Part shown: positions 1-39,825 of the stretch, piece after piece | How the letters are laid out: the number at the start of each line of letters is the position of its first letter | How positions within the stretch are numbered: position 1 is the first letter of the stretch | From: a virus | Reading direction: 5' to 3' (one strand) | Virus record (IMG/VR): IMGVR_UViG_3300044904_000056 | Coordinates: 40,041 to 104,040 of that record | Length of the DNA: 64,000 nt | Program-made: the position numbers and the translations under genes | The notes under the pieces: model-generated | Databases searched by the model: none | Seen by the model: only the letters and a program-made list of their open reading frames with translations | Told to the model about the DNA's origin: nothing

Positions 1-624
1 TACAACTTCCTGGAGAGTCCGCTTGTCCTTGACTACAATCTGTTCAAATTTCTCCCTGCTGATAGCGTGTTTCGGCGGATAGGCAATCCGCTTCGCTGTC
101 TTCAGCACCTCTAGGAACTGCTTGTAGTTAGCCTCTGTTTTGTTGCGCAGGTACCACGCTGGGTGGAAGGATATGACATACTGCCAAGGCCCTCCGTTCA
201 CGACGTTCCCGTGAAGCTTTAGGACTCCAGTTTTGTTGAGAACACTGCGGAGAGGAGAGGCTCCAAGGAGGATGACTACTTTCGGACGGAGCGAATGTAT
301 TTCACGAAGCAGATGGGGCCGACAGTGATTAATAGCGTAGGCTGGTAGTTTGTTCCCTGGCGGACGGCACCTAGCCGCATTGGTGAAGCGGCATTTCTTC
401 GGGTCAATCCCAACTTCCTCGATAGCTTCCCGGAGAACAAGGCCTGCTTCTCCACACCAAGGGTAGCCATTCTCATCCTCGTGCTCACCAGGCGCTTCCC
501 CGACAAACAGGAATACCGGCTCCTCACTGCCCTCCCCATTCATCTGTGGGGATTTGCAGCCCTTATAGAGCTGGCAAGGCTTGCAAAATCTATCAGGTTG
601 TCGGAGAACGTTGAGACTAAGCAT
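1..624 (-). CDS. Family-4 uracil-DNA-glycosylase-like domain, probably the N-terminus of an SPO1-type phage DNA polymerase (runs off the left edge)
   Basis: Not in the ORF track; translated by hand from ATG at 624 (TAATG overlap with the previous gene): MLSLNVLRQPDRFCKPCQLYKGC...LFVGEAPGEHEDENGYPWCGEAG...FTNAARCRPPGN...C...VILLG...SFHPAWYLR. It has the GEAPG, CxxC/CRPP and HPA motifs and stays open beyond the UDG domain, consistent with a fusion. Confidence 0.8.
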   Translation of the reverse strand, partial: MLSLNVLRQPDRFCKPCQLYKGCKSPQMNGEGSEEPVFLFVGEAPGEHEDENGYPWCGEAGLVLREAIEEVGIDPKKCRFTNAARCRPPGNKLPAYAINHCRPHLLREIHSLRPKVVILLGASPLRSVLNKTGVLKLHGNVVNGGPWQYVISFHPAWYLRNKTEANYKQFLEVLKTAKRIAYPPKHAISREKFEQIVVKDKRTLQEVV

Positions 625-917
625 TATTTTGACTTAGACTTTGTTCGCTTAACTTCCTGCAAGCCTAGATGGAACCCGATGCAGGTCAACAGCTTGAAAA
701 GTTCAACTTGAGCCTTCGCAGCCTCTTTCTCGTTCTCAGAACCTGCTTCTGTTATTAGAAAGTCCGTAGCCATCATACCAATCTTCGGGTTGAGGCCGAC
801 TTTCCTGAAAACAGAATCCCAGTCCTTTGGCCACCGCTTGTCCTTCCTTGCTGCCTTCAGCAGGACATCGCAGCGATTCCAGAATTGTTTCTGCTTGTAC
901 TCTTCAAAACGGCTCAT
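624..917 (-). CDS. Hypothetical protein
   Basis: 97 aa ORF coupled to both neighbours, with an AGGAG RBS. Confidence 0.6.
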   Translation of the reverse strand: MSRFEEYKQKQFWNRCDVLLKAARKDKRWPKDWDSVFRKVGLNPKIGMMATDFLITEAGSENEKEAAKAQVELFKLLTCIGFHLGLQEVKRTKSKSK

Positions 918-1303
918 TGCGCTTTCTCCTTCAACTCCTTGATACGGTCCATCGCGTCTTCTAGCTCAACTACGGTTGTATAGCAGAGCATAAGACAGAC
1001 AACCTCCTTTTCCGCAGCAGCCAAACCATTCTGGACACTAAATATCTCTAGCTGCTGTGCCCAGCGATATTTGGGAAGAGGGAGAACTCCATCCCGGATA
1101 GACTCGATAAGCTTCTGAAGATAGTGCATTGCTTTATCGAGGTCCTGTAGTCCGTTTTTCTTACGCCAACGCGTCACATATTTCGTGACCTGCCCCTCGA
1201 AATATCCTAGATGGTTATGGGCTGCTAAGTCCCAGTGCTGAAATTTCGCCTGGTAGTGCTCTCCGCCCACCTGGTAGTCATTCGCCTTCTTGTCAGATTC
1301 CAA
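914..1303 (-). CDS. DUF3310 / T7 gp1.7-like protein (possible nucleotide kinase)
   Basis: QVGGEHY...YFEGQVTKYVTRWRKKNGLQDLDKAMHYL signature; likely TTG start at 1303 after GGAGG. Confidence 0.75.
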   Translation of the reverse strand: MESDKKANDYQVGGEHYQAKFQHWDLAAHNHLGYFEGQVTKYVTRWRKKNGLQDLDKAMHYLQKLIESIRDGVLPLPKYRWAQQLEIFSVQNGLAAAEKEVVCLMLCYTTVVELEDAMDRIKELKEKAQ

Positions 1304-1667
1304 TTTGTGCCTCCTTGGGAATGTCCTCCAAACGCGCCAGACCAACATCCCAGTGGTCCGCGTGATTCTCTTTAGCCAGACGTTCTGCTTCATTCCGAGC
1401 AGGCGTATGACTGGTAGCCTTGATAAATTTCGTATCCCAATCCCTGCGACCGTTGAAGTAGAGCTTGACTTCATACCAGTCTTCCTGAACAACAATCGGC
1501 AGGATAATCCGGTGCTCTGCCGGCTTCGTCATCACCTTCGGAAAGAAGTACCTCTTGCGAAACTCGTGAGGCTTAGGATGGAATCGCGTTGTCCGCTTCT
1601 CTGGGGCTTTCCTGGCCCGGACCTTCTTTGTCTTCCGTGTTGGTCCTGCCTTTTTCTTTTGCGTCAT
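1293..1667 (-). CDS. Hypothetical basic protein
   Basis: 124 aa ORF overlapping the 3' end of the thymidylate-synthase-like gene. Confidence 0.5.
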   Translation of the reverse strand: MTQKKKAGPTRKTKKVRARKAPEKRTTRFHPKPHEFRKRYFFPKVMTKPAEHRIILPIVVQEDWYEVKLYFNGRRDWDTKFIKATSHTPARNEAERLAKENHADHWDVGLARLEDIPKEAQIGI

Positions 1668-2760
1668 CGAGTAGCCTCACACAGGTGGAGTAGACTTCTT
1701 TCGATATTCCATACGTGCACTGCTCGTAATAGTTCAAAGCCAATTCCATAAACGGGGAGGGAAGGTGCAGAATTTCACTAGCGACCCACTCCGCCCTATA
1801 CTGCCAACCTGGCTCTTTCACCCAGCGGAAAATAGTAAGCATTTGGGGAATGGTTTTTATCCAGTACCCATCTGGAGGGGGAGGCCATGTCGGATTTGGA
1901 AGCTCTCTTGGTTTGTCCGTCTTGAAAGCCCTAATCTTCTCTACTTTGAGGAGGACGTGTTGAAACTCTTCGTCAGTAACTGTAGAGAATCCTGGTACGC
2001 ATTCGGCCTTAACACTTGCTTGATTCATCACCTCTGATTCATCAAAGGCTCTTTCGAGGATATTCCCTAGAGTCGGCTTGTAGAGTTCTTCATAATAGTG
2101 GAGATTTTGAATAATGTACGTCAGCTTCCCTATCTTCGCCCCCAGACAACCCGCTATATAGGCATGAATATGGGAGAACTGAACCGCGTTGTACGGCGCT
2201 CCCCAAATGAGGTCGCAACTCCGCTGCACTACAGTCTGGTCTAGAATCCCGTTTCTCAGCCGTAGATATATGACATTGTTGCACGGGTAGTCATTTGACT
2301 TCAGAAGATTGTCCCGCTCCGGGTCCCAAAGGCTGATAACTGCTTGTCTTGATAGAGGCTCCCGCTTTAGCTTGTCGATGGCAATGCTAATTTGGTCTAC
2401 AGTTAGATATCCTCCAATTGCTGAAGGCCAGCGTCTCATCCGCAGCCCGTAGGCCCCATTGAAATCCTGCTGATTACCATCCGCAAACTTCCTCATGTTC
2501 TTGTTAAAGTAACATATCCACTCGACATTCCCGCTGCCTGAGAGAATCCAGATTACTTCAGCAAGGGCGAAGAATGGATTGAAGTTGCGTCCAGGAATCA
2601 CCATCCAGCAATATCCTGGCAGCTCATAGTTCAAACAGACAGGTTCTTCTAGCTCTAAGCAAGGACCATGGCGGGTGGGAATCTCCTTCCCATGATTTGC
2701 TATTTCGCGGACCAGAGCGAAGTAGAAGTCGCCAAGACCACGGCCTGAATAAGTTTTCAC
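1573..2760 (-). CDS. Thymidylate-synthase-superfamily enzyme, likely dUMP hydroxymethylase
   Basis: GAYGLR, SRQAVISLWDP, catalytic YPC, QRSCD, GAPYN (Asn at the dUMP-specificity position) and NLHYY motifs; next to 5hmdU-hypermodification genes. Confidence 0.85.
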   Translation of the reverse strand: MKTYSGRGLGDFYFALVREIANHGKEIPTRHGPCLELEEPVCLNYELPGYCWMVIPGRNFNPFFALAEVIWILSGSGNVEWICYFNKNMRKFADGNQQDFNGAYGLRMRRWPSAIGGYLTVDQISIAIDKLKREPLSRQAVISLWDPERDNLLKSNDYPCNNVIYLRLRNGILDQTVVQRSCDLIWGAPYNAVQFSHIHAYIAGCLGAKIGKLTYIIQNLHYYEELYKPTLGNILERAFDESEVMNQASVKAECVPGFSTVTDEEFQHVLLKVEKIRAFKTDKPRELPNPTWPPPPDGYWIKTIPQMLTIFRWVKEPGWQYRAEWVASEILHLPSPFMELALNYYEQCTYGISKEVYSTCVRLLDDAKEKGRTNTEDKEGPGQESPREADNAIPS

Positions 2761-2776
2761 AATCGTTCCTCCTCAC

Positions 2777-3646
2777 CTAGATAGAACGCTCCCCTCTAGG
2801 AAAACGTAAGTTGCCTTGGAACCCGTTGTAGAGAGAGCGAGGCCTGCCTTCTCCCAGACGTACCCGCTCATACTTGTCCCACTCACAAAGTGCATTCTGC
2901 AAATCCTGCGCATGTATGTCCGGCATTCCTGCTTGAAAAATTTTCGGGCTGATTTTGTCGTAGAGTTCGTCTAGGCATTCCTTCCAATCCGCTTCCTTCC
3001 ACTTAGCCCTCTTATCCCGCCCTATTACACGATTCAACCCTCGTTTGCTCCCAGGGCCAGAGATAGCCCAAGTTGACCAATCCTTTGCGTGCCGAAGCGT
3101 AGCATACTTCACATCAGCAATGACCTGCCCTGTCATAAAGCTTCCCATATCTTTCTGGTCGTGCAGCCTGTCGTAGAATTCCGCAAGCGTATCGCCATCT
3201 CTCGGGCGGATTTCTTTTCTTGCTCCCCACATCGGTGTCAGGACTTGCTTGGCTAGGTATCGGGCTTTCGATTGATGATCTGGACCTGCGTGAATCATAT
3301 ATGCTCCGGTGAAGACTTTCTCGCCGTCTTTCTTTCGCTGCTCCAATACTCTGATGAACTCGTCTGGGTGCCAAGGAACAGGATAACCTAGCTCATCTAG
3401 GGTCTCCGGCCAATTGACAAAACGTGAAACCGTCATAGCGAACCAGAGGTCCTTATCTTCCGCGTGAGGCTCCCGCCAATGCTCCCGTACCCAAATCGTG
3501 ACCGTGTCTAATTCCCGGAACACGTTGCAGAACCGATAGCGCTGAAGTATTGGGTCCCGTGTCCATGGTCGAGGCTTGCCAGCTTGCTTCCGCTTGTAGA
3601 TTGCGTGGCGTTCAAGGATGAAGCGAAGGAGAGGATTGATGTTCAT
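2777..3646 (-). CDS. aGPT-Pplase1 / 5-hmdU DNA kinase helical-domain family protein
   Basis: ERHAIY...PWTRDPILQRYRFCNVFRELD, FTGAYMI, GPGSKRGL and QNALCEWDKY motifs typical of this HhH-glycosylase-related family. Confidence 0.85.
   Translation of the reverse strand: MNINPLLRFILERHAIYKRKQAGKPRPWTRDPILQRYRFCNVFRELDTVTIWVREHWREPHAEDKDLWFAMTVSRFVNWPETLDELGYPVPWHPDEFIRVLEQRKKDGEKVFTGAYMIHAGPDHQSKARYLAKQVLTPMWGARKEIRPRDGDTLAEFYDRLHDQKDMGSFMTGQVIADVKYATLRHAKDWSTWAISGPGSKRGLNRVIGRDKRAKWKEADWKECLDELYDKISPKIFQAGMPDIHAQDLQNALCEWDKYERVRLGEGRPRSLYNGFQGNLRFPRGERSI
2781..2789 (-). promoter_or_regulatory. Recurrent GCGTTCTAT motif (candidate phage middle promoter)
   Basis: Exact 9-mer 21 nt upstream of the TS-like start; copies at 11600, 21416, 24716 and 52101. 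Confidence 0.6.
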
Positions 3647-3999
3647 CAGTTGCCTCTCCTTTGATTTTGATACAGACGTAGCCGTTCAGCCATATTCATC
3701 AGCTCGTTCGCCAGCTCTTCATCGCGGTAGGTGTAGTAACACTGAGTGTTGGACTTCTCTGCCATAGCTTCAAGATTGCTGATGATTTCGTCCAGGTCAA
3801 CTCGGGGGCCACGGTGCTTCTTGCCGGCTTTCTTCTTATCTCGGCAGGATTTGCAGCGTTTTGGCATTTGGAATTCGGGATTTGTTGCCTGAAGACTTTT
3901 GTAGAAGCTTATCTCGCTCTCGTACATCCCCCAGTCCTCGTGGCAGTCTACGCATTGCCCCATCGAAACAAATGCTCCTCGATCTTTATCATCCCCCAT
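3646..3999 (-). CDS. Zinc-ribbon protein (zf-trcl-like)
   Basis: CVDC...EISFY...PKRCKSCR. Confidence 0.65.
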   Translation of the reverse strand: MGDDKDRGAFVSMGQCVDCHEDWGMYESEISFYKSLQATNPEFQMPKRCKSCRDKKKAGKKHRGPRVDLDEIISNLEAMAEKSNTQCYYTYRDEELANELMNMAERLRLYQNQRRGN

Positions 4000-4358
4000 T
4001 TTCTCTTCCTTTCCGCTTTCTCCACTCTACCCAACGTCTCTTCGTAGCTTTACCAATTTTTAGAAGAGCCTGCTTAGTATGCTTGTATCCTTTGCTATTT
4101 TGATTCCCAAATCCGAAATGTTTGCCCGCAGCATTTTTATTCCCTAATTTGGAGAGGCTCATCTTTTTACGGCTCATAGGAGAAAGTTTTCGCCCTAAAC
4201 AGTATTGATTTCCTGTATGAAGTTTGATTAGTCTGCGGCGGTGTTCTGCAGACAATTTCTTTCCCTTCCTGTTATGATTCCCCGCCCCAATCTTATTACC
4301 CATCAATCTTATTACCCATCATCCTTCTTCTCATCTTCTTTCGAGTAGTCGCAGACAT
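3989..4358 (-). pseudogene. NUMOD3-repeat protein without a nuclease domain, frameshifted by a 16-bp duplication
   Basis: NUMOD3-like repeats (GKKLSAEHRRRL, GRKLSPMSRKKMS, GYKHTKQ). ATG at 4358 reads MSATTRKKMRRRMMGNKIDG*; removing one repeat copy restores the frame. Confidence 0.6.
4288..4319. repeat. Perfect 16-bp tandem duplication CAATCTTATTACCCAT x2
   Basis: Copies at 4288-4303 and 4304-4319. Confidence 0.95.
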
Positions 4359-4359
4359 T

Positions 4360-4983
4360 TTAATACCCAAGGAACCATCCCCACAACCAAGCTAGAATAG
4401 TTTGTAATCCATCCTGATAAGGGATAACTCTGACATCTGCCCCTACTTCTCTGAGTCTCTTCTCACTACCTAATACGGCCTTGTATTTTGGATAGAGGGA
4501 TTTGTCCGGGTCAACTGGCCGAGGGTCCTTCCGCTGAATCCTGCGCTTTACCATCCGCTGAAGGCACTTCTCTAAGGGGGTATCCATAAAGCCAAATATC
4601 CAATGCGTATGCGGTAGGCTTCTTGCCAGGTCAATCCAACGCTGGGTCAGGGTAGCAGCCAGCGCTCCCTCGAAAACAACATTCCCCCGCCTGGAAAGGT
4701 CTGTGATTGCCTTGGAAGCGTAATCGGCACGGGTGCTGCCCCTGTAATAGCTTTCGTCAATCGCGTCATAGCCGCCCGTTGTTATCCGGTAAGGCCCAAG
4801 CAGGGCTGTCTTCGTAGGCCCTGTATCGAGGACGTAGGCGAGCACCTTTCCATTCCCAGGGTTAATCAGAGGCGTATTGGAAAAGCTCTCTAGAAGGGAT
4901 TTTGCTAGGGTTGTCTTGCCACTGGCATTCGTGCCCCTGATGTTGATGACGATATGCTTCAGCCGAGGAAATCGTTCCGTCAT
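4360..4983 (-). CDS. P-loop kinase of thymidine-hypermodification loci (5-hmdU DNA kinase-like)
   Basis: INIRGTNASGKTT Walker A, LGPY...GGYD, VVFEG, DTPLEKCLQR; gene context. Confidence 0.75.
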   Translation of the reverse strand: MTERFPRLKHIVINIRGTNASGKTTLAKSLLESFSNTPLINPGNGKVLAYVLDTGPTKTALLGPYRITTGGYDAIDESYYRGSTRADYASKAITDLSRRGNVVFEGALAATLTQRWIDLARSLPHTHWIFGFMDTPLEKCLQRMVKRRIQRKDPRPVDPDKSLYPKYKAVLGSEKRLREVGADVRVIPYQDGLQTILAWLWGWFLGY

Positions 4984-5423
4984 TTCCCTTTCTCCAGCTT
5001 CGACAGATTCAAAACACCCGACTCGATAACCCGCATTGCCTTCATATAGTCGTCACCCTTGAGAAAGGGCAGGTCCGGTATGCGGATAACGGGAGGCTCC
5101 GCATACGCACCAAGAGGCGAGAACTTCCGCCGATGAGCTGGAAACTTTTTCAACAGCTGCTTGTAATGTACTGGGCTCATATAGATGATGCGGTCAGCCC
5201 ATTCGACCATCTTCTGAGTCACAGGCTTTGACCTTTCGTCCTCCTCTAGATAGTACGCCTGGTTGAGGCTATAGAGAGCCTCCCGGACTTTCTTCGCAAT
5301 GGTTCCCTGGTAGGGGCCTTTTTGCAGCCCTGCCGATTCAACGTTCATCCCGAGGTATCGCCCGATAGCCGCTGCGACCTGAGATCGGGAACGGTTGTTG
5401 GTGCAGATAAAGAGGATACGCAC
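4980..5423 (-). CDS. Low-molecular-weight phosphatase (LMW-PTP/ArsC fold)
   Basis: ILFICTNNRSRS (CX5R), SAG, WADRIIYM, IPD. Confidence 0.85.
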   Translation of the reverse strand: MRILFICTNNRSRSQVAAAIGRYLGMNVESAGLQKGPYQGTIAKKVREALYSLNQAYYLEEDERSKPVTQKMVEWADRIIYMSPVHYKQLLKKFPAHRRKFSPLGAYAEPPVIRIPDLPFLKGDDYMKAMRVIESGVLNLSKLEKGK

Positions 5424-5570
5424 TGTGCTTTCGACTCCCTTCTAGGCCCGACTGGTTTTAGGCCAGCCTATTGTTGGTAGCGGACCCAACTAGCCAGTGG
5501 CAGGGTGCTAGCAGAGTTCGTTTACGTGGGGATATAGCTAAACTGGTGTAAAGGCTAGTTTTGAGCCCTG

Positions 5571-6182
5571 CTAGGGGCCTATCCGGGGGAAGCGTAGGGG
5601 GCCAGTCCTCCTGGCCCTGACTATTAGCTCAACAGTAGCCTTCAGCTTCTCCGCTGGGTGAAAGTAGAAGAACTTAGCTTGGGCCGAGAAGATAGGTATA
5701 TGCCGCCACTTCCTAGCCGGAGGCTTCGCATAGCTCACGACCTCCATCCCCGCTAGCATCTCGTTCACACGTTCCCGGTGTTTTTGGACAAGGGCGTAGG
5801 GCTGTTCTAGGTAGAACCAGCAGCCCGGATATTGCAGCCACTGTCGGATATTCCAATGGTCCTGGGTATGCTCCGTCTGCTGAAGGGGAGCCACCCCTAG
5901 AGGCAGAATCACCGTAGAGTCCGGAGGGGGCCAAGTGTGGACTGGCTTGAGCATCTCTTTCCAATCGCAATCTCCTCCAATATAGTTGTATCCTTGCCAG
6001 TAAGCACCTACAGCATCGGCGTAAGTCTCCGCATCCCGCAGGGAGTTCTTCTTCACAGGGACCATAGTCAGAATGGTAACCTGCTTGCCTTCCTGAATCC
6101 ACTGCTCGATATGAGCCCCTAGCGAAAGGAAGGCATCATCACTGTGAGGCTCTACGATAACCAGGCGGTCATTTATGGGCAC
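5571..6182 (-). CDS. PIG-L/LmbE-family deacetylase-like protein
   Basis: IVEPHSDD and HTQDH zinc motifs, YLEQPY; GTG start at 6182 after GGAGG. Confidence 0.7.
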   Translation of the reverse strand: MPINDRLVIVEPHSDDAFLSLGAHIEQWIQEGKQVTILTMVPVKKNSLRDAETYADAVGAYWQGYNYIGGDCDWKEMLKPVHTWPPPDSTVILPLGVAPLQQTEHTQDHWNIRQWLQYPGCWFYLEQPYALVQKHRERVNEMLAGMEVVSYAKPPARKWRHIPIFSAQAKFFYFHPAEKLKATVELIVRARRTGPLRFPRIGP

Positions 6183-6774
6183 GTTTCGGCCTCCGGAAGA
6201 CGCTGAGATGCCGCCCATACCAGTTGGAAGTAATTCTTTCGTCAGCTAATATCGCTTCGCACAACTCCTTGGTGACCTTCTTTTCAAAGGTGAATCCGGC
6301 AAGCACAAATAGTTGCCGCCAATAGCCTTTAGGCTTGCAGTTCACGTGGTACCGGCCCCATTCAGAAGAGTCGATGGACAGGAGCACCCATTTTGAGGAG
6401 AGCCGTTTCACCGTATCCACTAAGACTTTCTCAGAGGACTCCGGGATGTGCTCGAATACATCCCACGAGGTTACCAGGTCAAATTTTTTGTCCAAATGGA
6501 AGGACTTTGATAGGTCGTGGGCTATGTATTTCGCTCCTTCCGCGAATCTGCTGTTGAACTCAGAACCATCCACCCCATAAGCCCTTACTCCTAGCTCTGA
6601 CAGCCGATTCACAAACGACATCGTACCACAACCCAGGTCAATGCAACGCTTGGGGTGAAATCTGTTGAAGATGAGCTCTGCTAGATATTTCGAGGACACG
6701 TGGGGTCCTTTTGTGGACCTGGTGCGATTTTTGAACCACTTCAGTGGATAGAGTTCACTTAGCTTTTCTTCCAT
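6169..6774 (-). CDS. Class I SAM-dependent methyltransferase
   Basis: IDLGCGT, GVD, FDLVTSWDVFEHI, HVNCKPKGYW. Confidence 0.85.
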   Translation of the reverse strand: MEEKLSELYPLKWFKNRTRSTKGPHVSSKYLAELIFNRFHPKRCIDLGCGTMSFVNRLSELGVRAYGVDGSEFNSRFAEGAKYIAHDLSKSFHLDKKFDLVTSWDVFEHIPESSEKVLVDTVKRLSSKWVLLSIDSSEWGRYHVNCKPKGYWRQLFVLAGFTFEKKVTKELCEAILADERITSNWYGRHLSVFRRPKRAHK

Positions 6775-7268
6775 AGTCGTGGGAACCTCATCGGGAAATT
6801 AGGTCTTGCAAATTCTCCGAAAAATTCTTTGGCAGCAGTATCATAAGCCTTCGCTGCGGCTATCGGATTGTCGAAGGAACCTAGATGAATAACTTTCCAA
6901 TATACACAAATCTGCGCATACCATTTCCTAGCACCTTTGTGCCAAGAGACACCTTTGAATCCTGATTTGTTATTTGAATGCTTTCCTTGGTTAGCCAGAT
7001 TCTGCGAGTTAGAAGCATCTCTCAAATTATCTTTTTGACAATCTAGCCCATTTCCATTCTTATGGTCTATCCCTTTGCGCCCTAATATAAAATTGTGTAG
7101 AAGAAAATTAGGAACTCCCATTTGTCCGTGAGCTGCGTACGACTTACCCTTAGAGCCAGATGTATAGTGCCATATGCCCTCAGCTGTTACACGTTCATAA
7201 TCTTCGTCATCAACAAGTGCATAGGCTCTTATCTTTCCTTTTCGATTGCGAAGCGGAATTTTCTTCAT
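6759..7268 (-). CDS. HNH-AP2 homing endonuclease
   Basis: DHKNGNGLDCQKDNLR (HNH) plus SGFKGVSW...WYAQI...HLGSF...AAKAYD (AP2). Confidence 0.9.
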   Translation of the reverse strand: MKKIPLRNRKGKIRAYALVDDEDYERVTAEGIWHYTSGSKGKSYAAHGQMGVPNFLLHNFILGRKGIDHKNGNGLDCQKDNLRDASNSQNLANQGKHSNNKSGFKGVSWHKGARKWYAQICVYWKVIHLGSFDNPIAAAKAYDTAAKEFFGEFARPNFPMRFPRLWKKS

Positions 7269-8386
7269 CGTCTAAACTCGTCAAAAACTTCATCATATAG
7301 TTTGTAGGCTGAATGATTGTCGTTTACATATTCCCTCGCTTCCTTTCTAGGATACCCTCTCACATCATATTTCATAATCGCTTCAGGATACTTGGCCAGG
7401 TCAGAGATAGGCAGTACCAAATTATCTGGGATGGCACTTCGGAGAAGGTTTTTGTGCACTACAGGGACGCAGCCATAATATAGAGCCTCAACAATTGTGT
7501 TGTTGTAGGAACCTCTCCGGTAGGCTTTATATTTTGCCCTATGCCCTTGAAAGTCAGCCATGAATCCCGCTCTGGAAAGGATTTTTGCCCGTCTCTCTAC
7601 TGAGACCCAACCATAGTAGGTTGCTAAGCCCTTCCCTGAGTATTGTGGGGCAAAAAAATCCTTACCAACGACCTTCTTCCAGCCATTTTCTTTTCTCATG
7701 TTATAGTATTCAATGCCGGAATTGTAGAGCTTTACTTCGTAACCTTTGTCGAGGAGTCGAGGTACCCCATCAAAGAAGGGTTTGATTCCTTTCACATTCT
7801 TCCATTGAGGCATCCATACAACGCGATTCTCAATGCGTTCCTTTTCGGAAGGCTTTCCGATAGGAATAAAAGGAATATAAACGGTCTGTACCGGATAGCC
7901 TGCTTTGACGAGAGGCTCTCCATAAGCAGGCTGAGTCACGAGAGTCTTCTCGCATAGCGGCAAAACTTGTTCCCCAAACTCCTTGTATGTATCCCAATAA
8001 GCATCCGAGATATAGCCGACAATCGGTATATCCAGTTTATTCAGCCTCTTTAACAAGGCCATAAAGACAGGACTGCCCCCATAAGCTTTTGTCGGATGCG
8101 GACAGAGGAAGCTCAACATCACTACATCGTAGGATGTTAGAAAGGCTAAAGTCTCTCGATAGTTTTCCCTATGGTGTGGAGCGTAGCCATCAATAGTGAT
8201 GTAGGAATCCCCACCACGGATTAATTTTCTTTCAGGCAACAAGAGGGGATGTTTTGTTTTCTGGTTGGCGCTAACGAGGACGTGAAAGGTGTCACCTTTC
8301 TGGTCTGCTACCTTCCGATAGGTTCTCAGGCGAGTGTTGATGCCCCCTACGGAAGAGGTAGGCCAATGCAGGACTGCAATTTTCAC
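7265..8386 (-). CDS. GT-B-fold (GT4-like) glycosyltransferase
   Basis: N-terminal KIAVLH...VGGI, QWKNVKGI, YGWV and NNTIVEALYYGCVPVV nucleotide-sugar motif; GTGA overlap start at 8386. Confidence 0.75.
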   Translation of the reverse strand: MKIAVLHWPTSSVGGINTRLRTYRKVADQKGDTFHVLVSANQKTKHPLLLPERKLIRGGDSYITIDGYAPHHRENYRETLAFLTSYDVVMLSFLCPHPTKAYGGSPVFMALLKRLNKLDIPIVGYISDAYWDTYKEFGEQVLPLCEKTLVTQPAYGEPLVKAGYPVQTVYIPFIPIGKPSEKERIENRVVWMPQWKNVKGIKPFFDGVPRLLDKGYEVKLYNSGIEYYNMRKENGWKKVVGKDFFAPQYSGKGLATYYGWVSVERRAKILSRAGFMADFQGHRAKYKAYRRGSYNNTIVEALYYGCVPVVHKNLLRSAIPDNLVLPISDLAKYPEAIMKYDVRGYPRKEAREYVNDNHSAYKLYDEVFDEFRR

Positions 8387-9003
8387 GATGCTTTCCTGAA
8401 GAGGAGATAGATGCTCCTCTTGTTTGCTGATTGAGCTACTAGCCGATAGCCCAGCCCTAGGAAGCAAGTCTCCATCTCTAGAGCCGGCAGGCGTCTCGAA
8501 TCGGTCAGGACTACCCAAGCGGCTTTGTCAAAGACGGCTTCTGTGACAGTTCTGTATTGCCTCTTGGCTTTACTGAGAGTCCAATCGGGGAAGTCTGCCA
8601 CTACAAGGTCTGGATGCTGAAAGAGACTATCTATCACTACCGATTGAGCCCCACCAAGAGGCTCTATGATAGAGGTAGACCAGCTATGGTGCCGCCCTGC
8701 TTCCAGGATGTACGCATAGCAGCGCCTCTCATTTGAGTAGACTTCGTGCTTGTTGGGATTGAATAGCAGCTGAAGGATTTGAGCGTTGACTCCCACCCCA
8801 CCAAACAGTTCAACGATGTTCTTTGGTTGCGGAGCAATTTGGCTGACGAGCTCAAAGAATCGCCTAGCTTCAGCCTCGGTCTCCCCAGGTTCGTAACGGA
8901 GCCGCCAGAATATGCCCCGCTTCGATGGCAGAGTGTTCTTCGCAACTCGGGGGAGTTTAGAGGGGAGCATGATGCGTGCTCCGGCCACAAGGATTGATTG
9001 CAT
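8383..9003 (-). CDS. Putative SAM-dependent methyltransferase
   Basis: IVELFGGVG motif I, DLVVADFP motif IV-like. Confidence 0.55.
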   Translation of the reverse strand: MQSILVAGARIMLPSKLPRVAKNTLPSKRGIFWRLRYEPGETEAEARRFFELVSQIAPQPKNIVELFGGVGVNAQILQLLFNPNKHEVYSNERRCYAYILEAGRHHSWSTSIIEPLGGAQSVVIDSLFQHPDLVVADFPDWTLSKAKRQYRTVTEAVFDKAAWVVLTDSRRLPALEMETCFLGLGYRLVAQSANKRSIYLLFRKAS

Positions 9004-9022
9004 CTTGTTTCTCCTCTACAAC

Positions 9023-9061
9023 AAAAATGATGGCGGGAGGCTCCGAAGAGCAACTCCCGCC
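9023..9061 (-). terminator. Rho-independent terminator
   Basis: GGCGGGAG/CTCCCGCC stem followed by ATCATTTTTG on the minus strand. Confidence 0.7.
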
Positions 9062-9085
9062 TATCAGCACTTTACCAGGACTGTA

Positions 9086-10264
9086 CTACGCTGCTGCCTT
9101 GCAAGCCTTCCCGAAGATTTTGAGCTTGGCCCCGAGATGAGACACGTCACCCGTGAACAGAAACTTCCCGGCAATCTTCGCCTCTTGCCAGTCCGACTTC
9201 TTGAGCCCCAGCTTCTCCAGCTTGGTCTTCGGATAGAGATAGACGCGAAAGCCTTCGTCCTTGTCCGGGCGGATGAATCGTGCCCAAGGCCCACCAGGAT
9301 ACTTGACATAAAGCTCCCCGCTGCTCTTGGTCTCAACCTCCGCACCCAGCGCCTCTGCCTTGCTAGACACTAGGATGTCCTTCACCGCACTGGAGAGCTT
9401 ACCACTCTTGGAAGACTTCTGCTTCTTTTCCTTGTGATGGTGATGCTTGTGTTCCTTTTTGGACACTTCCTTGTCCTCCTCTTTCTCGTGCTTCTTTTCT
9501 TCCCTGGGATGGTGATGCTTATGACCCTTCTCCTTCTTTCTCTTGTCTCCCTCCTCTTCCCTATTAGCTTTCAGAACTGCGATACAATTCTTGGACTCAA
9601 CGCAACGCTGGCACTCTGGCACATCCGGGTCGGGGTATTTCCCGAAGCAATCTTCAATTCCGGAGGGAATCGGTATGGACGGTGCCCGGGGTTTATACGT
9701 TGCCGGGTCAATCTGTACGAGGGGGGAGCCTTTCGACTCCCCCCTCTCGCTGCTGTCGTCCGAGGCATCCTCAGAGCTATCATCCTTCTTTTCTGAAGAA
9801 TCGTCCTTCTCTTTCCCGTGGTGCTTCTTGCTACCCTTCCTGCCCTTCGGAGGCTCTGGCTCCTCAGAGCTGTCGTCCTTCTTGTCGGAGGCATCAGAGG
9901 CGTCACTAGCATCGCTCTTGTCCGATGCGTCGCTAGCATCCGAGGCATCACTGGCATCTGAAGCATCAGAGGCGTCAGAAGCGTCACTGGCGTCAGAAGC
10001 TTCAGAGGAGCTATCGTCCTTCTTGTCGGATGCGTCGGAAGCATCCGATGCGTCGCTAGCGTCCGAAGAATCTGGAGCTTCAGAACTGTCGTCTGGCTCC
10101 TTCTTCTTCGTTGAGGACTTCTTGGGAGACTTCTTTGAGGACTTTGGAGTTTCTTCCTCAGAGCTGTCGTCAGACTTGTCCGGCTCCTCTTCCGAGGAAT
10201 CGTCAGCAGCCTTCCCTGGTTTTGCCTTGTGCTTTTTCTTCTTGTCTACTTTCTTTTCGGCCAT
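9086..10264 (-). CDS. Low-complexity Asp/Ser/Lys-rich protein with a C4 zinc motif
   Basis: (DAS)n tract, DDSSE-type blocks, K/H-rich blocks, CFGKY...CQRC...C; coupled to the sigma gene and followed by a terminator. Confidence 0.8.
   Translation of the reverse strand: MAEKKVDKKKKHKAKPGKAADDSSEEEPDKSDDSSEEETPKSSKKSPKKSSTKKKEPDDSSEAPDSSDASDASDASDASDKKDDSSSEASDASDASDASDASDASDASDASDASDKSDASDASDASDKKDDSSEEPEPPKGRKGSKKHHGKEKDDSSEKKDDSSEDASDDSSERGESKGSPLVQIDPATYKPRAPSIPIPSGIEDCFGKYPDPDVPECQRCVESKNCIAVLKANREEEGDKRKKEKGHKHHHPREEKKHEKEEDKEVSKKEHKHHHHKEKKQKSSKSGKLSSAVKDILVSSKAEALGAEVETKSSGELYVKYPGGPWARFIRPDKDEGFRVYLYPKTKLEKLGLKKSDWQEAKIAGKFLFTGDVSHLGAKLKIFGKACKAAA
9884..10070 (-). repeat. Degenerate 9-bp coding repeat encoding (Asp-Ala-Ser)n
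   Basis: Synonymously diversified GAY-GCN-WSN units. Confidence 0.9.
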
Positions 10265-10861
10265 CTACCATCCTCCTTCAGAGTCAACAACTGCGGTTCT
10301 TATTTCGTCCACTACACGCCGCACATCCCCACTTCGCATCCCTAGATACCCCCGGATGTGTCGCAGTTTGATGCGGAAGCTCTTTGCACCCCGGACATTC
10401 TGTCCCTGGGAAATAAGTTTGTTTCTCCGGCAGAAATCCCTCCACGCAAACTCAGAAACTTGAATTGGTGGGTCTAAAAGTATTTGCAGGAACATCCGGG
10501 CTTCACAGGAGAGTATCGGATATAGAACTTCCGCCCGTTCGTGCATCCGGTAAAGGAAGTTATCTGCATAGTCTGGCCAGTTGTCTGCCTCCCCTAATTG
10601 GACCTCAACTCCGTCCCGGCTCCAAGTTCTATCAAACCGGGAAAGGTCCCGAAGGCGGTTGTATAGGGCACGTTTGAAATATCGTGCGAAATAGATTTGA
10701 CCATCTGGGAATTCTTCGCAGCATTGGACCAATATGAGCAGGCCCTCTGCTTCTAGCTCCTCTGATGATCTACGGAAATGACCAGGTATCGCGTAGTGAT
10801 GCGCTACCCAGTGGATGAGATTCTTGAAACGACGCAAGGCAACGTCCGTATTGTATGCCAT
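10265..10861 (-). CDS. Phage sigma-factor-like protein
   Basis: FKNLIHWVAHHY...EELEAEGLLIL...FARYFKRALYNRLRDL (region 2-like) and a C-terminal HTH-like segment; ATG at 10861 after GGAGGAGG. Confidence 0.7.
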   Translation of the reverse strand: MAYNTDVALRRFKNLIHWVAHHYAIPGHFRRSSEELEAEGLLILVQCCEEFPDGQIYFARYFKRALYNRLRDLSRFDRTWSRDGVEVQLGEADNWPDYADNFLYRMHERAEVLYPILSCEARMFLQILLDPPIQVSEFAWRDFCRRNKLISQGQNVRGAKSFRIKLRHIRGYLGMRSGDVRRVVDEIRTAVVDSEGGW

Positions 10862-10895
10862 GACGCTGGGATACGCCTCCTCCAAGGCGAGTCGG

Positions 10896-10924
10896 AGTCT
10901 ACTACTAAACTCGGAGCGAGTAAA
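10896..10924 (-). promoter_or_regulatory. sigma70-like promoter of the phage sigma gene
   Basis: TTTACT-N17-TAGACT in the intergenic gap. Confidence 0.65.
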
Positions 10925-10943
10925 GGAAAATTTTCCCCTTCAC

Positions 10944-11579
10944 CTACTTGCCTATTTTGGCTTTCCGGCGAGGCGTGGAAACCTTCTGACTCCTGGAAAG
11001 CGGTCTCTTCTTGGGAACAGCGGCTCTCTTGGTTTGCGCTTTATTCTTGCCAATTCTTCCTCCGTGTACACGACGTACTCGACTGGGATTTTTCTTCCAT
11101 GCGTTGATGGAATGCTTAGGACCACGTGGCGCTTTCCGGTTGCTGGGTCTACTCTTTCGCTTTTGAACTTTGCTTCTGGGATCAGTTTTCTCAGGCTGGA
11201 CAAAGTCGCATTTGCGTAATTTGACCTCGGCTCTACGGATGCGCTTTGGGAAGGACTCAGAGCCGATGAGCTTCCTGCACTTGAGACAACGGACTGTGCT
11301 TGCACCTTCTACCTCCTCTCTGCCTGATGGGCAATGGCATATCTCTGAAGGTACATCTCTTGGGAATCGGAGGGGCCTTGGATACCGCTTGATTGACCGG
11401 GGAGTTCTGACCGTTATCATACTCCAAAACCAATTTTGCCTAGTCTGGTCTTTCTGGGTCCACACTTGTACCCCAAATTTGGGGAGCAATTTGTAGACCT
11501 TTCCAGTGCGCCCGGTAACGGTATCCACAACATACGTCACTCCAGGGATGATAACTTTCTCACCGTAGGCCCCATCCAT
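10944..11579 (-). CDS. Hypothetical protein with CxC...CxxC (3' half may be read in another frame)
   Basis: AGGAGG RBS and upstream GCGTTCTAT motif. Confidence 0.6.
   Translation of the reverse strand: MDGAYGEKVIIPGVTYVVDTVTGRTGKVYKLLPKFGVQVWTQKDQTRQNWFWSMITVRTPRSIKRYPRPLRFPRDVPSEICHCPSGREEVEGASTVRCLKCRKLIGSESFPKRIRRAEVKLRKCDFVQPEKTDPRSKVQKRKSRPSNRKAPRGPKHSINAWKKNPSRVRRVHGGRIGKNKAQTKRAAVPKKRPLSRSQKVSTPRRKAKIGK
10952..11305 (-). CDS. Hypothetical overlapping ORF ending in LFPR/RFPG/RFPR
   Basis: Protein-like 3' half; no clear start of its own. Confidence 0.45.
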   Translation of the reverse strand: MQAQSVVSSAGSSSALSPSQSASVEPRSNYANATLSSLRKLIPEAKFKSERVDPATGKRHVVLSIPSTHGRKIPVEYVVYTEEELARIKRKPREPLFPRRDRFPGVRRFPRLAGKPK

Positions 11580-11599
11580 TCCCGTTTCCTCCTGATTGA

Positions 11600-11608
11600 A
11601 TAGAACGC
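11600..11608 (-). promoter_or_regulatory. GCGTTCTAT motif
   Basis: 21 nt upstream of ATG 11579. Confidence 0.6.
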
Positions 11609-11657
11609 TGAGTTGTTGATAACAGGGGGCAGAGGGGGTGGTTCAAGCCCCCTCTTC

Positions 11658-12347
11658 CTACTTCTTTTTCTTCGGAGCGACCACCTTCACCTTCGCAGCC
11701 ACGTACTCCTTCAAAGGTTTTGCTGGCGAAAAGCGTATCTTATTACTTGCTGGCTTCGCAGGGAACGTCTTATGCTCCCCTGTGAATGGAACGATTCCCT
11801 TTCGTTTTGGCAGGGCCTTCCGGTAGGCAACCCGGATACGGCCAATCTCCGGCAGGCGGAAGAATCGGTCATTCTTCAGACCGTGGTGAGCTTCCGTCAC
11901 CAGAGCTTCGTAGATGGACCGGACAATTTTGGTTGTCTGGCCTGTTTCCTTCGCAATTGCAGTGTAGAGTTTCATCTTGCGTGATTCTCCTTTGTCTCCC
12001 TCTTTGGGGAATATGATTATGTACTTCTGCCGGGTCCGGGGTCCGCTATAGAGCTTCGCACCAAAATGCTCCTGGAGGAGGCTGATAATCTCCTCAGAAA
12101 GGTGCGTGGTGTAGCAGCCGTGAAACTTCTTCACTACGATTTCGTGAAGCTGTTCCTTGGGTACGTTGAAATAGTCAATTCCTAGACGGCGGTACAAATT
12201 CGCCATCTCGATATCGGCGTGGGCTCCTCCGTGGCGGAGGCGTTCTAGTTTATCTGTCTTTTCCTGACGGAAGAGACGGTTGTCAGCGAGACGCTTTGCT
12301 TTTTGTTCGGGAGTCTCGTTTGAGGTTATGTGGAAGGCGTGACTCAT
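11658..12347 (-). CDS. HU/IHF-family DNA-binding protein (domain from internal ATG 11975) with an in-frame N-terminal extension
   Basis: AIAKETG...FRLPEIGRI...RKGIVPFTGE...PAKPASNKIRFSPAKPLKEYV; AAGGAG before ATG 11975. Confidence 0.85.
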   Translation of the reverse strand: MSHAFHITSNETPEQKAKRLADNRLFRQEKTDKLERLRHGGAHADIEMANLYRRLGIDYFNVPKEQLHEIVVKKFHGCYTTHLSEEIISLLQEHFGAKLYSGPRTRQKYIIIFPKEGDKGESRKMKLYTAIAKETGQTTKIVRSIYEALVTEAHHGLKNDRFFRLPEIGRIRVAYRKALPKRKGIVPFTGEHKTFPAKPASNKIRFSPAKPLKEYVAAKVKVVAPKKKK

Positions 12348-12634
12348 CCCCTCTTGTGCTCCTTCTGCCGTAGGAACTCTACTAAATTTTCAGTGTGCTT
12401 GCAGACGTGTGGAACTGCGTTCAGGACGGCCAGAGGCGCACGAAATTGTCCTTCAGGGCAGGTACAGAATTCGATTTGCTGACGGGTCTTGGCGTTGACG
12501 AGCAGAGTGCAGTAATAAGTCTTGCCTGAATCCCCGCTCGTTATTTTGTAGATGAATGCTGCCCAATCCTCCGGAAGTCCTAATTTCACATCATCCCGGA
12601 GCTGGACTTGGTCATACTTCCAGAGTTTAGACAT
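12344..12634 (-). CDS. SWIM zinc-finger protein
   Basis: FCTCP...CKH. Confidence 0.65.
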   Translation of the reverse strand: MSKLWKYDQVQLRDDVKLGLPEDWAAFIYKITSGDSGKTYYCTLLVNAKTRQQIEFCTCPEGQFRAPLAVLNAVPHVCKHTENLVEFLRQKEHKRG

Positions 12635-14193: not shown

Positions 14194-15576
14194 TCAATTC
14201 ACCTTCTCTTTCGGAATTGGTTTAACTTCTGGAGTTGAGGCCGGGGGAAGAGTTGTTGCATCAGCAGGGACGGACAGGACGTGCCCGCCTTCGATGGAGA
14301 GTTTCATCATCAGGTCAACATCAGCCTGCTTTGTATTCGGAGAGTGGAGGCGCTGCATTCCGCGTTCAGGGGAGATGTAGAACATATCACCTTTCCCGAG
14401 GAGGTGTTCCGCCCCCTTGCAGTTCAGGATGGTCTTACTATCTGCTGAGGACGGGACTCGGAATGCTGCGCGAGCCGGGAAGTTGACCTTGATCTTGCCG
14501 GAAACAACATCCACAGATGGGCGCTGCGTTGCAGCTATCACGTGGATACCGGCAGCGCGGGACATTGCCGATATTTGGGCCATCTTATCGGTGAAGGACT
14601 TCTTCTCTGACAGAACGAGGTCTGCCATCTCATCGATGACGACGACAATATAAGGCCAGCAGTCATCGGGCTTTCCTTCCGCCTTCATCTTGTCGTTGTA
14701 CTCCTTGAGGTTCTTACACTTGAACCCGAAGAGGTTGGAAGTCCTACGGCGCATTTCCTGAATCAGCCTCTCCATAATCGAGAGGGCGTCATAGACTCCA
14801 GCAACCGGGGGCTGCATCAGGTGAGGCAGGCCTTGGTAGTGGAAGAGTTCCACGGACTTTGGGTCAATCAGGACCAGCTTCATCTGCTTCGGGGTACGCA
14901 TGTAGAGGAGAGAGGTTAGGATACCGTTGATCCAAACGGATTTGCCTGCGCCTGTTGAGCCTGCGATAAGTAGGTGAGGCATCCTCGTTAGGTCCTCTAC
15001 ATAGGGCTGACCGTTGGACTGGACTCCGAAGTTGATCGGCAGTTCCATATCGTCCCTGTGGGCGATTGCGGCCCCTAGGCAGTCCGCAAATTGGATCTCC
15101 GTTCTCTCCTTATTCGGTACAGAAATAGCAACCGCACTCTTGCCGTGAAGCCTCTGGATGGAGACATCTTCCGCTGCTAGACCAATGGCTAGGTCCTCGT
15201 TAATGTCCTTGATTCTCCGGAGCCGGGTATAGCGGTCAGGGCTGAACTCATACTCCGTAACGATAGGACCAACGCGGATATCCGTAACCTTCCCAGGACA
15301 ATCGAAGTCGCGGGTGCGGGTCGTTATGATATCCACTACCTTCTGCTGTTCGGGGTTGGCAGCTAGTTCCCGAGGGAATCGCTGGACGCCCTTTGGGTAG
15401 GCTTTCTTGCCCTTCTCTAGTCCTTCCTTCTCTGGGTCGTACTTATCGATGAGATTCCCGCAGAGCAGGCAGCGCCTATAAAGGGTATAACGGGAAATGG
15501 AAACAGCATCCTTTCCACCTACACCTTTACAGCCTCGACAAATCGCCAGCTTGAAGCCGTTCGTATGATCCTTCAT
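14194..15576 (-). CDS. ftsK: FtsK/SpoIIIE-family DNA translocase
   Basis: MPHLLIAGSTGAGKS, LIDPK, VVVIDEMADL, RAAGIH, ATQRPSVDV, GAEHLLGKGDM. Confidence 0.95.
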   Translation of the reverse strand: MKDHTNGFKLAICRGCKGVGGKDAVSISRYTLYRRCLLCGNLIDKYDPEKEGLEKGKKAYPKGVQRFPRELAANPEQQKVVDIITTRTRDFDCPGKVTDIRVGPIVTEYEFSPDRYTRLRRIKDINEDLAIGLAAEDVSIQRLHGKSAVAISVPNKERTEIQFADCLGAAIAHRDDMELPINFGVQSNGQPYVEDLTRMPHLLIAGSTGAGKSVWINGILTSLLYMRTPKQMKLVLIDPKSVELFHYQGLPHLMQPPVAGVYDALSIMERLIQEMRRRTSNLFGFKCKNLKEYNDKMKAEGKPDDCWPYIVVVIDEMADLVLSEKKSFTDKMAQISAMSRAAGIHVIAATQRPSVDVVSGKIKVNFPARAAFRVPSSADSKTILNCKGAEHLLGKGDMFYISPERGMQRLHSPNTKQADVDLMMKLSIEGGHVLSVPADATTLPPASTPEVKPIPKEKVN

Positions 15577-21434: not shown

Positions 21435-22109
21435 CTATCGTTCCAACTCAGATTTGATACCCCGAATCACGCTGTGCCGGAGCCTCGAATTTTTCCTAAG
21501 CTCCCACAAGGCCCTCCGCACGTGTCTCCACTCCCTACTACTGTACAAATAGCCTGCAATGAATAGGGGGCTCAAATCCTTGAAGATTGCGAGGAAGACT
21601 TGGCTTGATGGAACCCCAAGCTGCCTTTTGGCTTCCATAAATATCCTCGTGGAAGATTTCGCACTAGCATAGGCATCCTCCTCTGTCCATACATTGAGAT
21701 ACCGCTTCCAGTCCTCCTCCAGCTTGTACAACTGCCTGTCTTTCTTAACCAACCAGGTGTAGATTTCCAGAGCCTTATCGCTCGCCAGAAATGCCGGATG
21801 GGGCATGGTCCTCGAATTCTTGTAGTGGCCATACCGACAAAGCACCTTCACATACAGGCTTGGGTCTAGCTTCTTTTCAACCAGCTTCGGAGCAAGAAGC
21901 ATAAATGCTCGCATTGCTCTCCAGCCTACCTTCGTCCTGTAGATATCCCAATCCCAAGTCCGCTTGTTCTTGTACGACCTGCTACGTTTGCTAACATCCT
22001 TCGATTTCGCAATCTTGTTGTACGTCAGCCTCAGAATCCCCATCACCAGCTTTTCACTTCCTGTCAATTTCCATCTCGGGAATCTCTGTGAAGTCCTTGC
22101 CATTCGCAC
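21435..22109 (-). CDS. Hypothetical basic protein (possible initiator or helicase loader)
   Basis: Position between the repeat-rich gap and the helicase; function inferred from context only. Confidence 0.6.
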   Translation of the reverse strand: MRMARTSQRFPRWKLTGSEKLVMGILRLTYNKIAKSKDVSKRSRSYKNKRTWDWDIYRTKVGWRAMRAFMLLAPKLVEKKLDPSLYVKVLCRYGHYKNSRTMPHPAFLASDKALEIYTWLVKKDRQLYKLEEDWKRYLNVWTEEDAYASAKSSTRIFMEAKRQLGVPSSQVFLAIFKDLSPLFIAGYLYSSREWRHVRRALWELRKNSRLRHSVIRGIKSELER

Positions 22110-38814: not shown

Positions 38815-38832
38815 AGGTGAGAACTTATTGTC

Positions 38833-39819: not shown

Positions 39820-39825
39820 AATTCC

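Follow-up and report, generated by a model that had tools for sequence, protein, structure and literature searches.

Phage genes for the likely substitution of 5-hydroxymethyluracil for thymine and its decoration with an amino sugar in DNA

What base modification is made by a run of phage genes in which a thymidylate synthase (TS) homologue and a DNA kinase homologue stand together with a glycosyltransferase (GT), a deacetylase, methyltransferases (MTases) and a phosphatase? The question is raised by the minus-strand array at positions 1573–9003 of a 64,000-nt stretch of DNA (the window), which represents bases 40041–104040 of the single 104,040 bp IMG/VR virus record IMGVR_UViG_3300044904_000056. 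The phage is uncultured, its source is peat, its genome is about 104 kb, and nearly all of its genes are on the minus strand in the window and genome numbering. The array is most likely a thymidine-hypermodification cluster that replaces thymine with 5-hydroxymethyluracil (5hmU) and adds an amino sugar in DNA. The detailed form favored here has a somewhat better than even probability: 5-hydroxymethyl-2'-deoxyuridine (5hmdU) in DNA is O-glycosylated with an N-acetylhexosamine (HexNAc), then N-deacetylated and then methylated, each chemical step being deduced from the genes. The core module consists of the TS homologue, a clade 1 aGPT-Pplase (Pplase1), an LmbE-type deacetylase and a GT-B enzyme similar to T4 DNA alpha-glucosyltransferase (AGT); in this phage there are also MTases. 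The genes concerned, and the domain of the polymerase that lies in the window, are as follows.

8383–9003, minus strand: MTase-like protein, 206 aa, first gene of the array (motifs and Atlas leads)
7265–8386, minus strand: GT-B glycosyltransferase, T4 AGT-like, 373 aa (fold)
6169–6774, minus strand: class I S-adenosylmethionine (SAM) methyltransferase, Methyltransf_23, 201 aa (PF13489, 3.7e-11)
5571–6218, minus strand: PIG-L/LmbE-type N-deacetylase, 215 aa (motif and family profile)
4980–5423, minus strand: low-molecular-weight Cys phosphatase, 147 aa (PF01451, 3.8e-11)
4360–4983, minus strand: P-loop 5-hmdU DNA kinase homologue, 207 aa (PF18748 and M6 gp54 homology)
2777–3646, minus strand: aGPT-Pplase clade 1 (HMUDK_hel), 289 aa (PF18723, 3.9e-47)
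1573–2760, minus strand: TS homologue, 395 aa (PF00303, 1.7e-28; PHROG 5131, 3.8e-63)
1–624, minus strand: uracil-DNA glycosylase (UDG) domain, N-terminal part of an 888-aa UDG-PolA replicative polymerase (PF03167, 1.2e-28)

Every gene that the original prediction had listed for this contiguous minus-strand run is found where it had been placed. The GT start is an exception; it had been put at a TTG at 8518 and is corrected to the GTG at 8386, which overlaps the upstream stop. The open reading frame (ORF) of UDG-PolA occupies genome positions 37998–40664 and extends beyond the window start. Protein families were assigned with Pfam cut-offs and PHROG, 50,697 phage records were searched by tblastn and megablast, and neighborhoods were scanned in IMG/VR. 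Structures are AlphaFold2 (AF2) models that were compared with the PDB by Foldseek and by VIA-align, which gives the Z values below.

The arrangement of the core genes recurs in other viruses. When IMG/VR was scanned with the GT alignment, 11 loci were obtained, and in each of them a deacetylase homologue is within 3 kb of the GT (directly adjacent in 8). Pplase1 and a TS homologue stand beside the GT and deacetylase in 9 loci, usually followed by DUF3310 and PolA. Pplase1 is carried by 11 of 12 genomes; in two of these, outside the 9 loci (170 kb and 117 kb), it is located about 30 kb from the GT-deacetylase pair, and the one remaining GT locus is a fragment with an estimated completeness of 51%. 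Identities are 26–57% and the contigs are 17–170 kb in length, so that descent within a group of close relatives does not by itself account for the arrangement. Conservation of the neighborhood, left by the original prediction as a point to be checked, is thus seen in independent viral contigs and is the deciding computational result, and the recurrence of GT, deacetylase, Pplase1 and TS homologue far exceeds chance.

The variable neighbors in the related loci point to DNA and sugar tailoring. In two loci (L009:11107–11964 and L011:9156–9974) genes for TET-associated glycosyltransferases (TAGT, PF20691) stand among those for the GT, deacetylase and Pplase1, and a second GT4 follows the deacetylase in L006 and L007. 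In L013 (IMGVR_UViG_3300033143_001775, positions 2031–3022) an adenylylsulfate (APS) kinase (PF01583, 2.7e-12) and a sulfotransferase-like protein lie between Pplase1 and TS, a hint that the modification may also exist in a sulfated form. Nucleotidases for deoxynucleoside monophosphates (NT5C, HD) adjoin the TS homologue in related loci. In the 170-kb genome G007, a T4-like phage with gp32 and PhoH, it is Pplase1 that adjoins an NT5C nucleotidase (G007:C1:77653–78519; L015:7576–8643), some 30 kb away from the GT and deacetylase.

The TS homologue indicates which base is modified. It scores 100 bits against PF00303 (cut-off 24.3), and its catalytic Cys is in the segment Y-P-C-N, which aligns to P-C-H of solved TS structures. 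Two positions of the E. coli enzyme are diagnostic: at N177, Asn denotes dUMP and Asp denotes dCMP as substrate, and at L143 a bulky residue marks a methylating synthase while an acidic residue admits water and marks a hydroxymethylase (PMC13326640). The window protein has P-Y-N and D-Y-P-C, i.e., Asn at the N177 position and Asp at L143, so that its earlier assignment to the Asn type was right. The motifs G-A-N and K-D-x-P-C are common to M6 gp58, to the homologue in phage Simon and to 7 homologues from the related clusters. The residues at these positions are read as a dUMP-hydroxymethylase signature, and the modified base would therefore be thymine/uracil and not cytosine.

The GT is modeled with a two-Rossmann-domain GT-B fold. 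The AF2 model, built from 30 homologues, has a pLDDT of 94.6, and its top PDB match is T4 AGT with HMU-containing DNA (Foldseek E 1e-13, TM 0.69). VIA-align also ranks T4 AGT first, with a Z of 27.8 over 338 residues and an rmsd of 3.8 Å, at a sequence identity of only ~15%. The next-best folds are about 2.4 Z units lower and represent the GT4 retaining enzymes HepE, BshA, TarM, PimA and MshA (Z 24–25.4), of which BshA, TarM and MshA are users of UDP-GlcNAc (uridine diphosphate N-acetylglucosamine); many GT4 enzymes match the model at Z 21–25. A cyanophage 'DNA alpha-GT' and a pair of SP-15 glycosyltransferases are among the near viral models. Homologues in metagenomes number at least 128, have 35–67% identity and are found mostly on phage-sized contigs, and a few of them carry PF13439. 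Based on synteny only, the protein is predicted to be a 5hmdU DNA glycosyltransferase with a UDP-HexNAc donor.

The deacetylase segment E-P-H-x-D-D-x-F-L-S and a distal His are invariant across 12 homologues (H25, D27, D28 and H121). In LmbE/PIG-L enzymes these residues serve zinc binding and catalysis. The family profile matches the teicoplanin GlcNAc deacetylases Orf2*/Dbv21 (1.5e-8 to 1.8e-7) with both halves of the protein and matches BshB and chitobiose deacetylase weakly; the solved relatives are LmbE deacetylases only. Pairs of a GT4 and an LmbE enzyme are known from BshA/BshB, MshA/MshB and PIG-A/PIG-L, where GlcNAc transfer is followed by deacetylation. In such modules a retaining GT-B enzyme adds GlcNAc and a zinc amidase of the LmbE family frees the 2-amino group. 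The known modules act on small molecules or lipids, whereas here the genomic context points to DNA.

The Methyltransf_23 protein is 64% identical to the N-terminal domain of a 589-aa MTase-GT fusion (P0005, on a 100.6-kb contig) and is predicted to tailor the sugar. The MTase-like protein at 8383–9003 has no Pfam or PHROG match. Its motifs E-x-F-G-G-x-G and A-D-F-(N/P) are kept in its few relatives, and Atlas leads give a class I MTase fold of the PrmA/MTS/rRNA-adenine type (TM 0.66–0.75). There are only 3 close homologues among 5.8 billion proteins, too few to classify it, and Pfam was uninformative on its marginal relatives.

A pathway can be proposed from these properties. The TS homologue would make 5hmdUMP, as suggested by the signature of its active site and by homology to M6 gp58, and the UDG-fused PolA would incorporate 5hmdU into DNA. 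Fusions of this kind with an active UDG are reported for phages whose genomes are modified at T (PMC13697223). The GT-B enzyme would then move a HexNAc, most likely the GlcNAc of host UDP-GlcNAc, onto the 5-CH2OH group in DNA, and the LmbE-type enzyme would strip the acetyl group and expose a primary amine. The Methyltransf_23 enzyme, possibly together with the MTase-like product of the first gene, would methylate the amino sugar. A methylated 5-(aminohexosyl-oxymethyl)uracil is thus predicted at the end of the pathway. Pplase1 may flip out or present the base, or perform a further group transfer. The phosphatase and the 5-hmdU kinase represent an accessory module, in which the kinase probably adds phosphate to a fraction of the 5hmdU and the phosphatase would take it off again at sites that are not further processed.

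The presence of Pplase1 and the kinase also allows an unlikely alternative, in which the kinase makes 5-phosphomethyl-dU and the Cys of Pplase1 swaps the phosphate for a nucleophile, an amino sugar or other metabolite. The GT, deacetylase and MTases would then prepare the nucleophile or decorate the product, and the phosphatase would clear unreacted phosphates. Pplase1 scores 161 bits against PF18723 (cut-off 25), is 40% identical to M6 gp55, and has an invariant C254-E255 whose Cys aligns with the Cys of M6 gp51, an amino acid:DNA transferase (AADT). That AADTs require the homologous Cys (PMC8989533) favors a substitution by Pplase1; in the AADT PUGT this residue acts as a clamp on the flipped base (PMC11472151). 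An argument against the substitution is that clade 1 does not conserve the Glu that AADTs have four positions ahead of the Cys. The AF2 model (pLDDT 86.8, with a tail predicted to be disordered) has PUGT bound to DNA (8z2n) as its best match, with a VIA-align Z of 12.2 over 227 residues; helix-hairpin-helix (HhH) glycosylases follow at Z 9–10. Foldseek E values are weak (0.07–0.28), and for a helical protein a Z under 13 counts as modest. A search of PDB sequences with the Pplase1 sequence profile gave nothing, so the relationship was found by fold comparison only. On the model, Pplase1 is placed as a structural paralogue of AADT with a helical DNA-glycosylase-like fold, and it may be catalytic. 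In phage SP10 the clade 1 domain is the only one present, fused to a kinase and without a clade 2 enzyme (PMC5889632), which is in keeping with the substitution; conversely, M6 gp55, also of clade 1, is dispensable in the reconstituted M6 pathway (PMC8989533).

The original prediction had also stated that no amino acid:DNA transferase is recognizable. No AADT (PF18724) candidate is present in the whole 104-kb record at E <= 10, the best tblastn match of M6 gp51 in this genome has an E of 0.3, and PF18724 is also absent from five related records. The cluster slot where M6 has a pyridoxal phosphate (PLP) decarboxylase and a radical-SAM enzyme contains neither. The statement holds for a canonical AADT, but it is too strong as worded, because Pplase1 is modeled as a structural paralogue of PUGT and has the essential Cys in the aligned position.

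The kinase is marginal by Pfam, with 27.3 bits against PF18748 (cut-off 27). It has the Walker A loop G-T-N-A-S-G-K-T and is 30% identical over its full length (E 6e-15) to M6 gp54, a characterized 5-hmdU DNA kinase (PMC8989533); this clear homology speaks for the phosphate substitution. Against it, four relatives that have GT, deacetylase, Pplase1 and TS have no kinase. The four records were searched in full, and two of them are at least 95% complete. Neither the Pfam model nor a profile made from three sequences detects a kinase in them, although the profile recovers the kinase of the present genome, the positive control, at 1e-83. The core thus works without phosphorylation of 5hmdU, a phosphate leaving group cannot be general, and the sugar is most likely on the free hydroxyl and not on a phosphate. 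The nearest fold to the GT likewise glycosylates a hydroxymethyl group directly. The original prediction had left it open whether 5hmdU or its phosphate receives the N-acetyl-sugar that is then deacetylated and methylated. The sugar route is supported by the AGT-like GT, the deacetylase in 11 of 11 loci and the MTase-GT fusion, while the phosphate acceptor is made less plausible by the relatives without kinase.

The phosphatase scores 43.8 bits against PF01451 (cut-off 23.2), has an intact C-x5-R-S loop (CTNNRSRS, residues 7–14), and its nearest solved homologue is YwlE (8.7e-07). Its gene and the kinase gene overlap by 4 nt. The only good phosphatase homologue in the phage records is in phage Simon (PQ683277.1, L014 4005–12422), an unannotated sewage phage. 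The gene order there is LMWP-kinase-Pplase1-Nmad5-TS-HD-DUF3310, with an AADT, a DAO-type oxidase and an amidoligase-like ORF upstream; the cluster is PaMx11-like plus phosphatase. The same LMWP-kinase-Pplase1 order in the two phages lends support to the proposal that the phosphatase would work together with the kinase. Because kinase-less relatives exist and the pair is also found in an AADT-type cluster, the phosphatase-kinase pair is seen as a recurrent, transferable sub-module.

The relatives without kinase leave room for an improbable variant, in which the conserved GT-LmbE-Pplase1 triad is a hitherto unrecognized kinase-independent route to cationic amino-sugar thymines and Pplase1 is a true enzyme. 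For example, the Pplase1 Cys could regenerate the exocyclic methylene at C5 and reattach the sugar through its freed amine, which would give a C-N-linked glycosamine base. The free amine would be a platform for methylation in this phage, sulfation in L013 and extra sugars in L006, L007, L009 and L011.

Several points weigh against O-glycosylation of 5hmdU followed by deacetylation and methylation. The chemistry of this DNA rests on inference, as the phage is uncultured, and sequence cannot reveal the donor sugar or the acceptor atom. The GT has no Pfam match above cut-off (the best is GT47, E 0.021) and nothing significant in PHROG. The deacetylase, as a single sequence, scores 20.2 bits against PIG-L (PF02585; cut-off 28.2), with a match to the N-terminal 38 residues only. 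PF00303 is not found in the related genomes G006–G008, and G007 and G008 have GT, PIG-L and Pplase1 yet no detectable TS homologue; 5hmU in G007 may be made by another route. In the present genome NT5C, dUTPase and dCMP deaminase were not found, the latter two with PF00692 and PF00383, respectively, by which divergent enzymes could be missed. Pplase1 could itself be the transferase, as the clade 1-only kinase fusion of SP10 suggests (PMC5889632), and the presence of a kinase in a genome that has no AADT is unaccounted for.

A further point is a second sugar island at 41716–52755 (minus strand), among head genes, with two GT9-like genes, an NAD epimerase/dehydratase, a GT17, a Methyltransf_24 and a homing endonuclease of the GIY-YIG/NUMOD3 type. 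The island could provide the DNA glycan or lengthen it, or show glycosylation of other targets such as virion proteins. It is quite unlikely that the cluster adds only the first sugar and the island extends it to a multi-sugar chain on thymine, as in the phages SP-15, YerA41 and Carin-5. In Carin-5 the GTs and deacetylase adjoin the polymerase and the modified T has hexose/HexNAc and phosphate (PMC12686479), and the SP-15 models among the nearest viral folds and the gene content of the island also agree with such a chain. The GT and the deacetylase, however, have no tblastn match in the 50,697 phage records, the island is ~35 kb off and may serve virion protein glycosylation, and the phage DNA was sequenced readily from a Nextera library at very high depth, unlike Carin-5. 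The SP15-like group has a dCTP deaminase and a dUTP phosphorylase (PMC13697223); of the SP15-like gene set, UDG-PolA and TS are present here, and PF00383 and PF00692 are unmatched in the genome. It is very unlikely that the GT, deacetylase and MTases act on the host envelope, a virion protein or a small molecule and are neighbors through shared early expression. In favor of this, the best-known settings of GT4 and LmbE pairs are small-molecule and lipid pathways, the structural matches include BshA and MshA, and the phage has a separate GT-family island. Against it, the closest fold is T4 AGT and not a GT4 enzyme, the GT-deacetylase pair stays beside Pplase1 and TS across contigs at 26–57% identity, in phages of 40 to 170 kb, and L009 and L011 have TAGT DNA glycosyltransferases within the cluster.

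The proposed O-glycosylation of 5hmdU can be compared with known DNA modifications. The HMUDK/AADT pathways of M6, ViI, PaMx11 and phiW-14 have a TS-type hydroxymethylase, a P-loop kinase and a Pplase1 in the same order upstream of the polymerase (PMC8989533, PMC5889632), and in both cases 5hmdU is expected to be modified within DNA, after replication. Unlike those pathways, the present cluster has a GT, deacetylase, MTases and phosphatase in the AADT/PLP/radical-SAM slot of M6, upstream of kinase-Pplase1-TS-polymerase, and close functional relatives of its core have no kinase. Similarity to T4 AGT consists of the GT-B fold and the predicted direct O-glycosylation of a 5-hydroxymethylpyrimidine in duplex DNA. 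The base, however, is U-derived and not C-derived (the TS has Asn, not Asp), the predicted sugar would arrive N-acetylated and lose the acetyl group afterwards, and T4 has no deacetylase or Pplase partner.

Phages SP-15, YerA41 and Carin-5 have in common with this phage a sugar-modified T (predicted here), UDG-PolA, and GTs and a deacetylase near the polymerase, and an aGPT-Pplase gene is reported in some SP-15-group members (PMC12686479, PMC13697223). They differ by a 4–5-carbon linker and several sugars, and their chemistry is itself unsettled (PMC12686479, PMC13697223). Base J (beta-glucosyl-5hmU) of kinetoplastids and the glycosylation of 5-hydroxymethylcytosine (5hmC) by phage TAGT also place a sugar on a 5-hydroxymethylpyrimidine in DNA. 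In base J, the 5hmU is made by a dioxygenase on T in DNA and not by a TS homologue, and the GT folds differ. Neither system is known to have an amino sugar or a deacetylation step. In the literature searched there is no cluster of GT, LmbE/PIG-L and aGPT-Pplase and no hexosaminyl-5hmU base in phage DNA. The conserved enzyme set occurs in no characterized phage. As precedents, the glycosylated thymines known from SP-15, YerA41 and Carin-5 come closest, along with the glycosylation of 5hmC and 5-hydroxycytosine (5hoC).

In the literature surveyed, the biochemically solved thymidine hypermodification pathways all use a kinase and an AADT, and the glycosylated thymines of SP-15-type phages so far lack a genetic explanation. 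The cluster and its relatives in 11 IMG/VR contigs represent a testable recurrent enzyme set for an amino sugar on DNA thymine. The set is also the first functional context for the clade 1 aGPT-Pplase, which is dispensable in the sole pathway where it has been assayed. If the proposal is true, it implies a new class of modified base, hexosaminyl-5hmU with methylated, sulfated and extended variants, new DNA-acting glycosyltransferases and deacetylases for the labeling of 5hmU, and a new type of target for studies of modification-dependent restriction and anti-restriction.

The 104-kb record is probably a complete, circularly assembled genome. It has a direct terminal repeat of 144 bp with one mismatch (G000:C1:1–144 and 103897–104040), and the exact product of the gene at 8383–9003 is also found on a contig of 207,626 bp, about twice the genome, which may be a two-copy concatemer; completeness is deduced from these two observations. 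The IMG/VR label is linear and the CheckV completeness estimate is 72%. The same DNA is present in at least 5 peat-metagenome runs (2025), in one of which, from a Nextera library, the contig depth is ~2000–3900. Of 30 bins of window positions 1–12500, 29 are matched at 99% identity or more by contigs of an RNA-seq run from peat, which cover the cluster; they are not counted as proof of transcription because DNA carry-over is possible. A contig joint that skips 8720–9346 (run X4) is unreliable, with 20 letters on one side and ~1% of the depth. Megablast of the cluster gave no nucleotide match in the phage records, and Rfam and tRNA scans of the window gave no matches. A promoter and terminator scan gave no more sites than shuffled sequences and none useful on the coding strand.

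The tetrapeptide RFPR is present 19 times on the coding strand of the whole genome and twice on the other strand. Examples in the window are at these positions:

2795–2806, 4963–4974, 5583–5594, 6777–6788, 10973–10984, 11358–11369
15370–15381, 22074–22085, 24235–24246, 24664–24675, 43085–43096

The sites are mostly within about 10 residues of an N or C terminus. The RFPR tag shared by the deacetylase, the kinase and Pplase1 had been taken as a link between the deacetylase and the DNA pathway. It links the deacetylase to nothing specifically, because it is found on more than a dozen unrelated proteins, e.g., RecA-like and FtsK-like proteins, HNH-AP2/homing endonucleases and several proteins of unassigned function. 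Deacetylase and kinase homologues in other phages have no RFPR tails. The codons vary synonymously, so the conservation is at the peptide level, and a DNA motif is rejected. RFPR may be a docking or addressing motif.

The remaining genes within and directly downstream of the array are the following.

6759–7268, minus strand: HNH_3 and AP2 homing-endonuclease-like gene (Pfam AP2 6e-07, HNH_3 2.8e-04)
3989–4306, minus strand: NUMOD3-only ORF, 105 aa, without nuclease domain (NUMOD3 2.9e-05)
3646–3999, minus strand: treble-clef zinc-ribbon protein, 117 aa (PF13451, 4.5e-06)
914–1495, minus strand: DUF3310 protein, downstream of the TS homologue (PF11753, 5.9e-07)

The NUMOD3-only ORF is an addition to the earlier gene list; it sits between the kinase and zinc-ribbon genes and is likely a homing-endonuclease remnant. 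The HNH-AP2 gene has no counterpart in the related loci and the zinc-ribbon gene is not conserved among them, while a DUF3310 homologue is at the same position in L003, L008–L011 and phage Simon. Homing-endonuclease genes or remnants interrupt both the modification cluster (6759–7268 and 3989–4306) and the glycan cluster (GIY-YIG/NUMOD3, 44238–44951), and a SegE-type endonuclease is found between the GT and deacetylase in a related contig (L004:11643–12419).

Upstream of the array, the ORFs at 9086–10264, 10265–10885 and 10944–11579 have nothing significant in Pfam or PHROG. They do not resemble pathway genes, and the array is therefore taken to start at 9003. The ORF at 10265–10885 has a weak sigma-70 r2 match and that at 10944–11579 encodes a basic zinc-ribbon protein. 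The 392-aa protein immediately upstream of the cluster (9086–10264, minus strand) has long acidic Ser/Asp repeats (DASDAS...), followed by a Lys/His-rich stretch and a small C-terminal domain.

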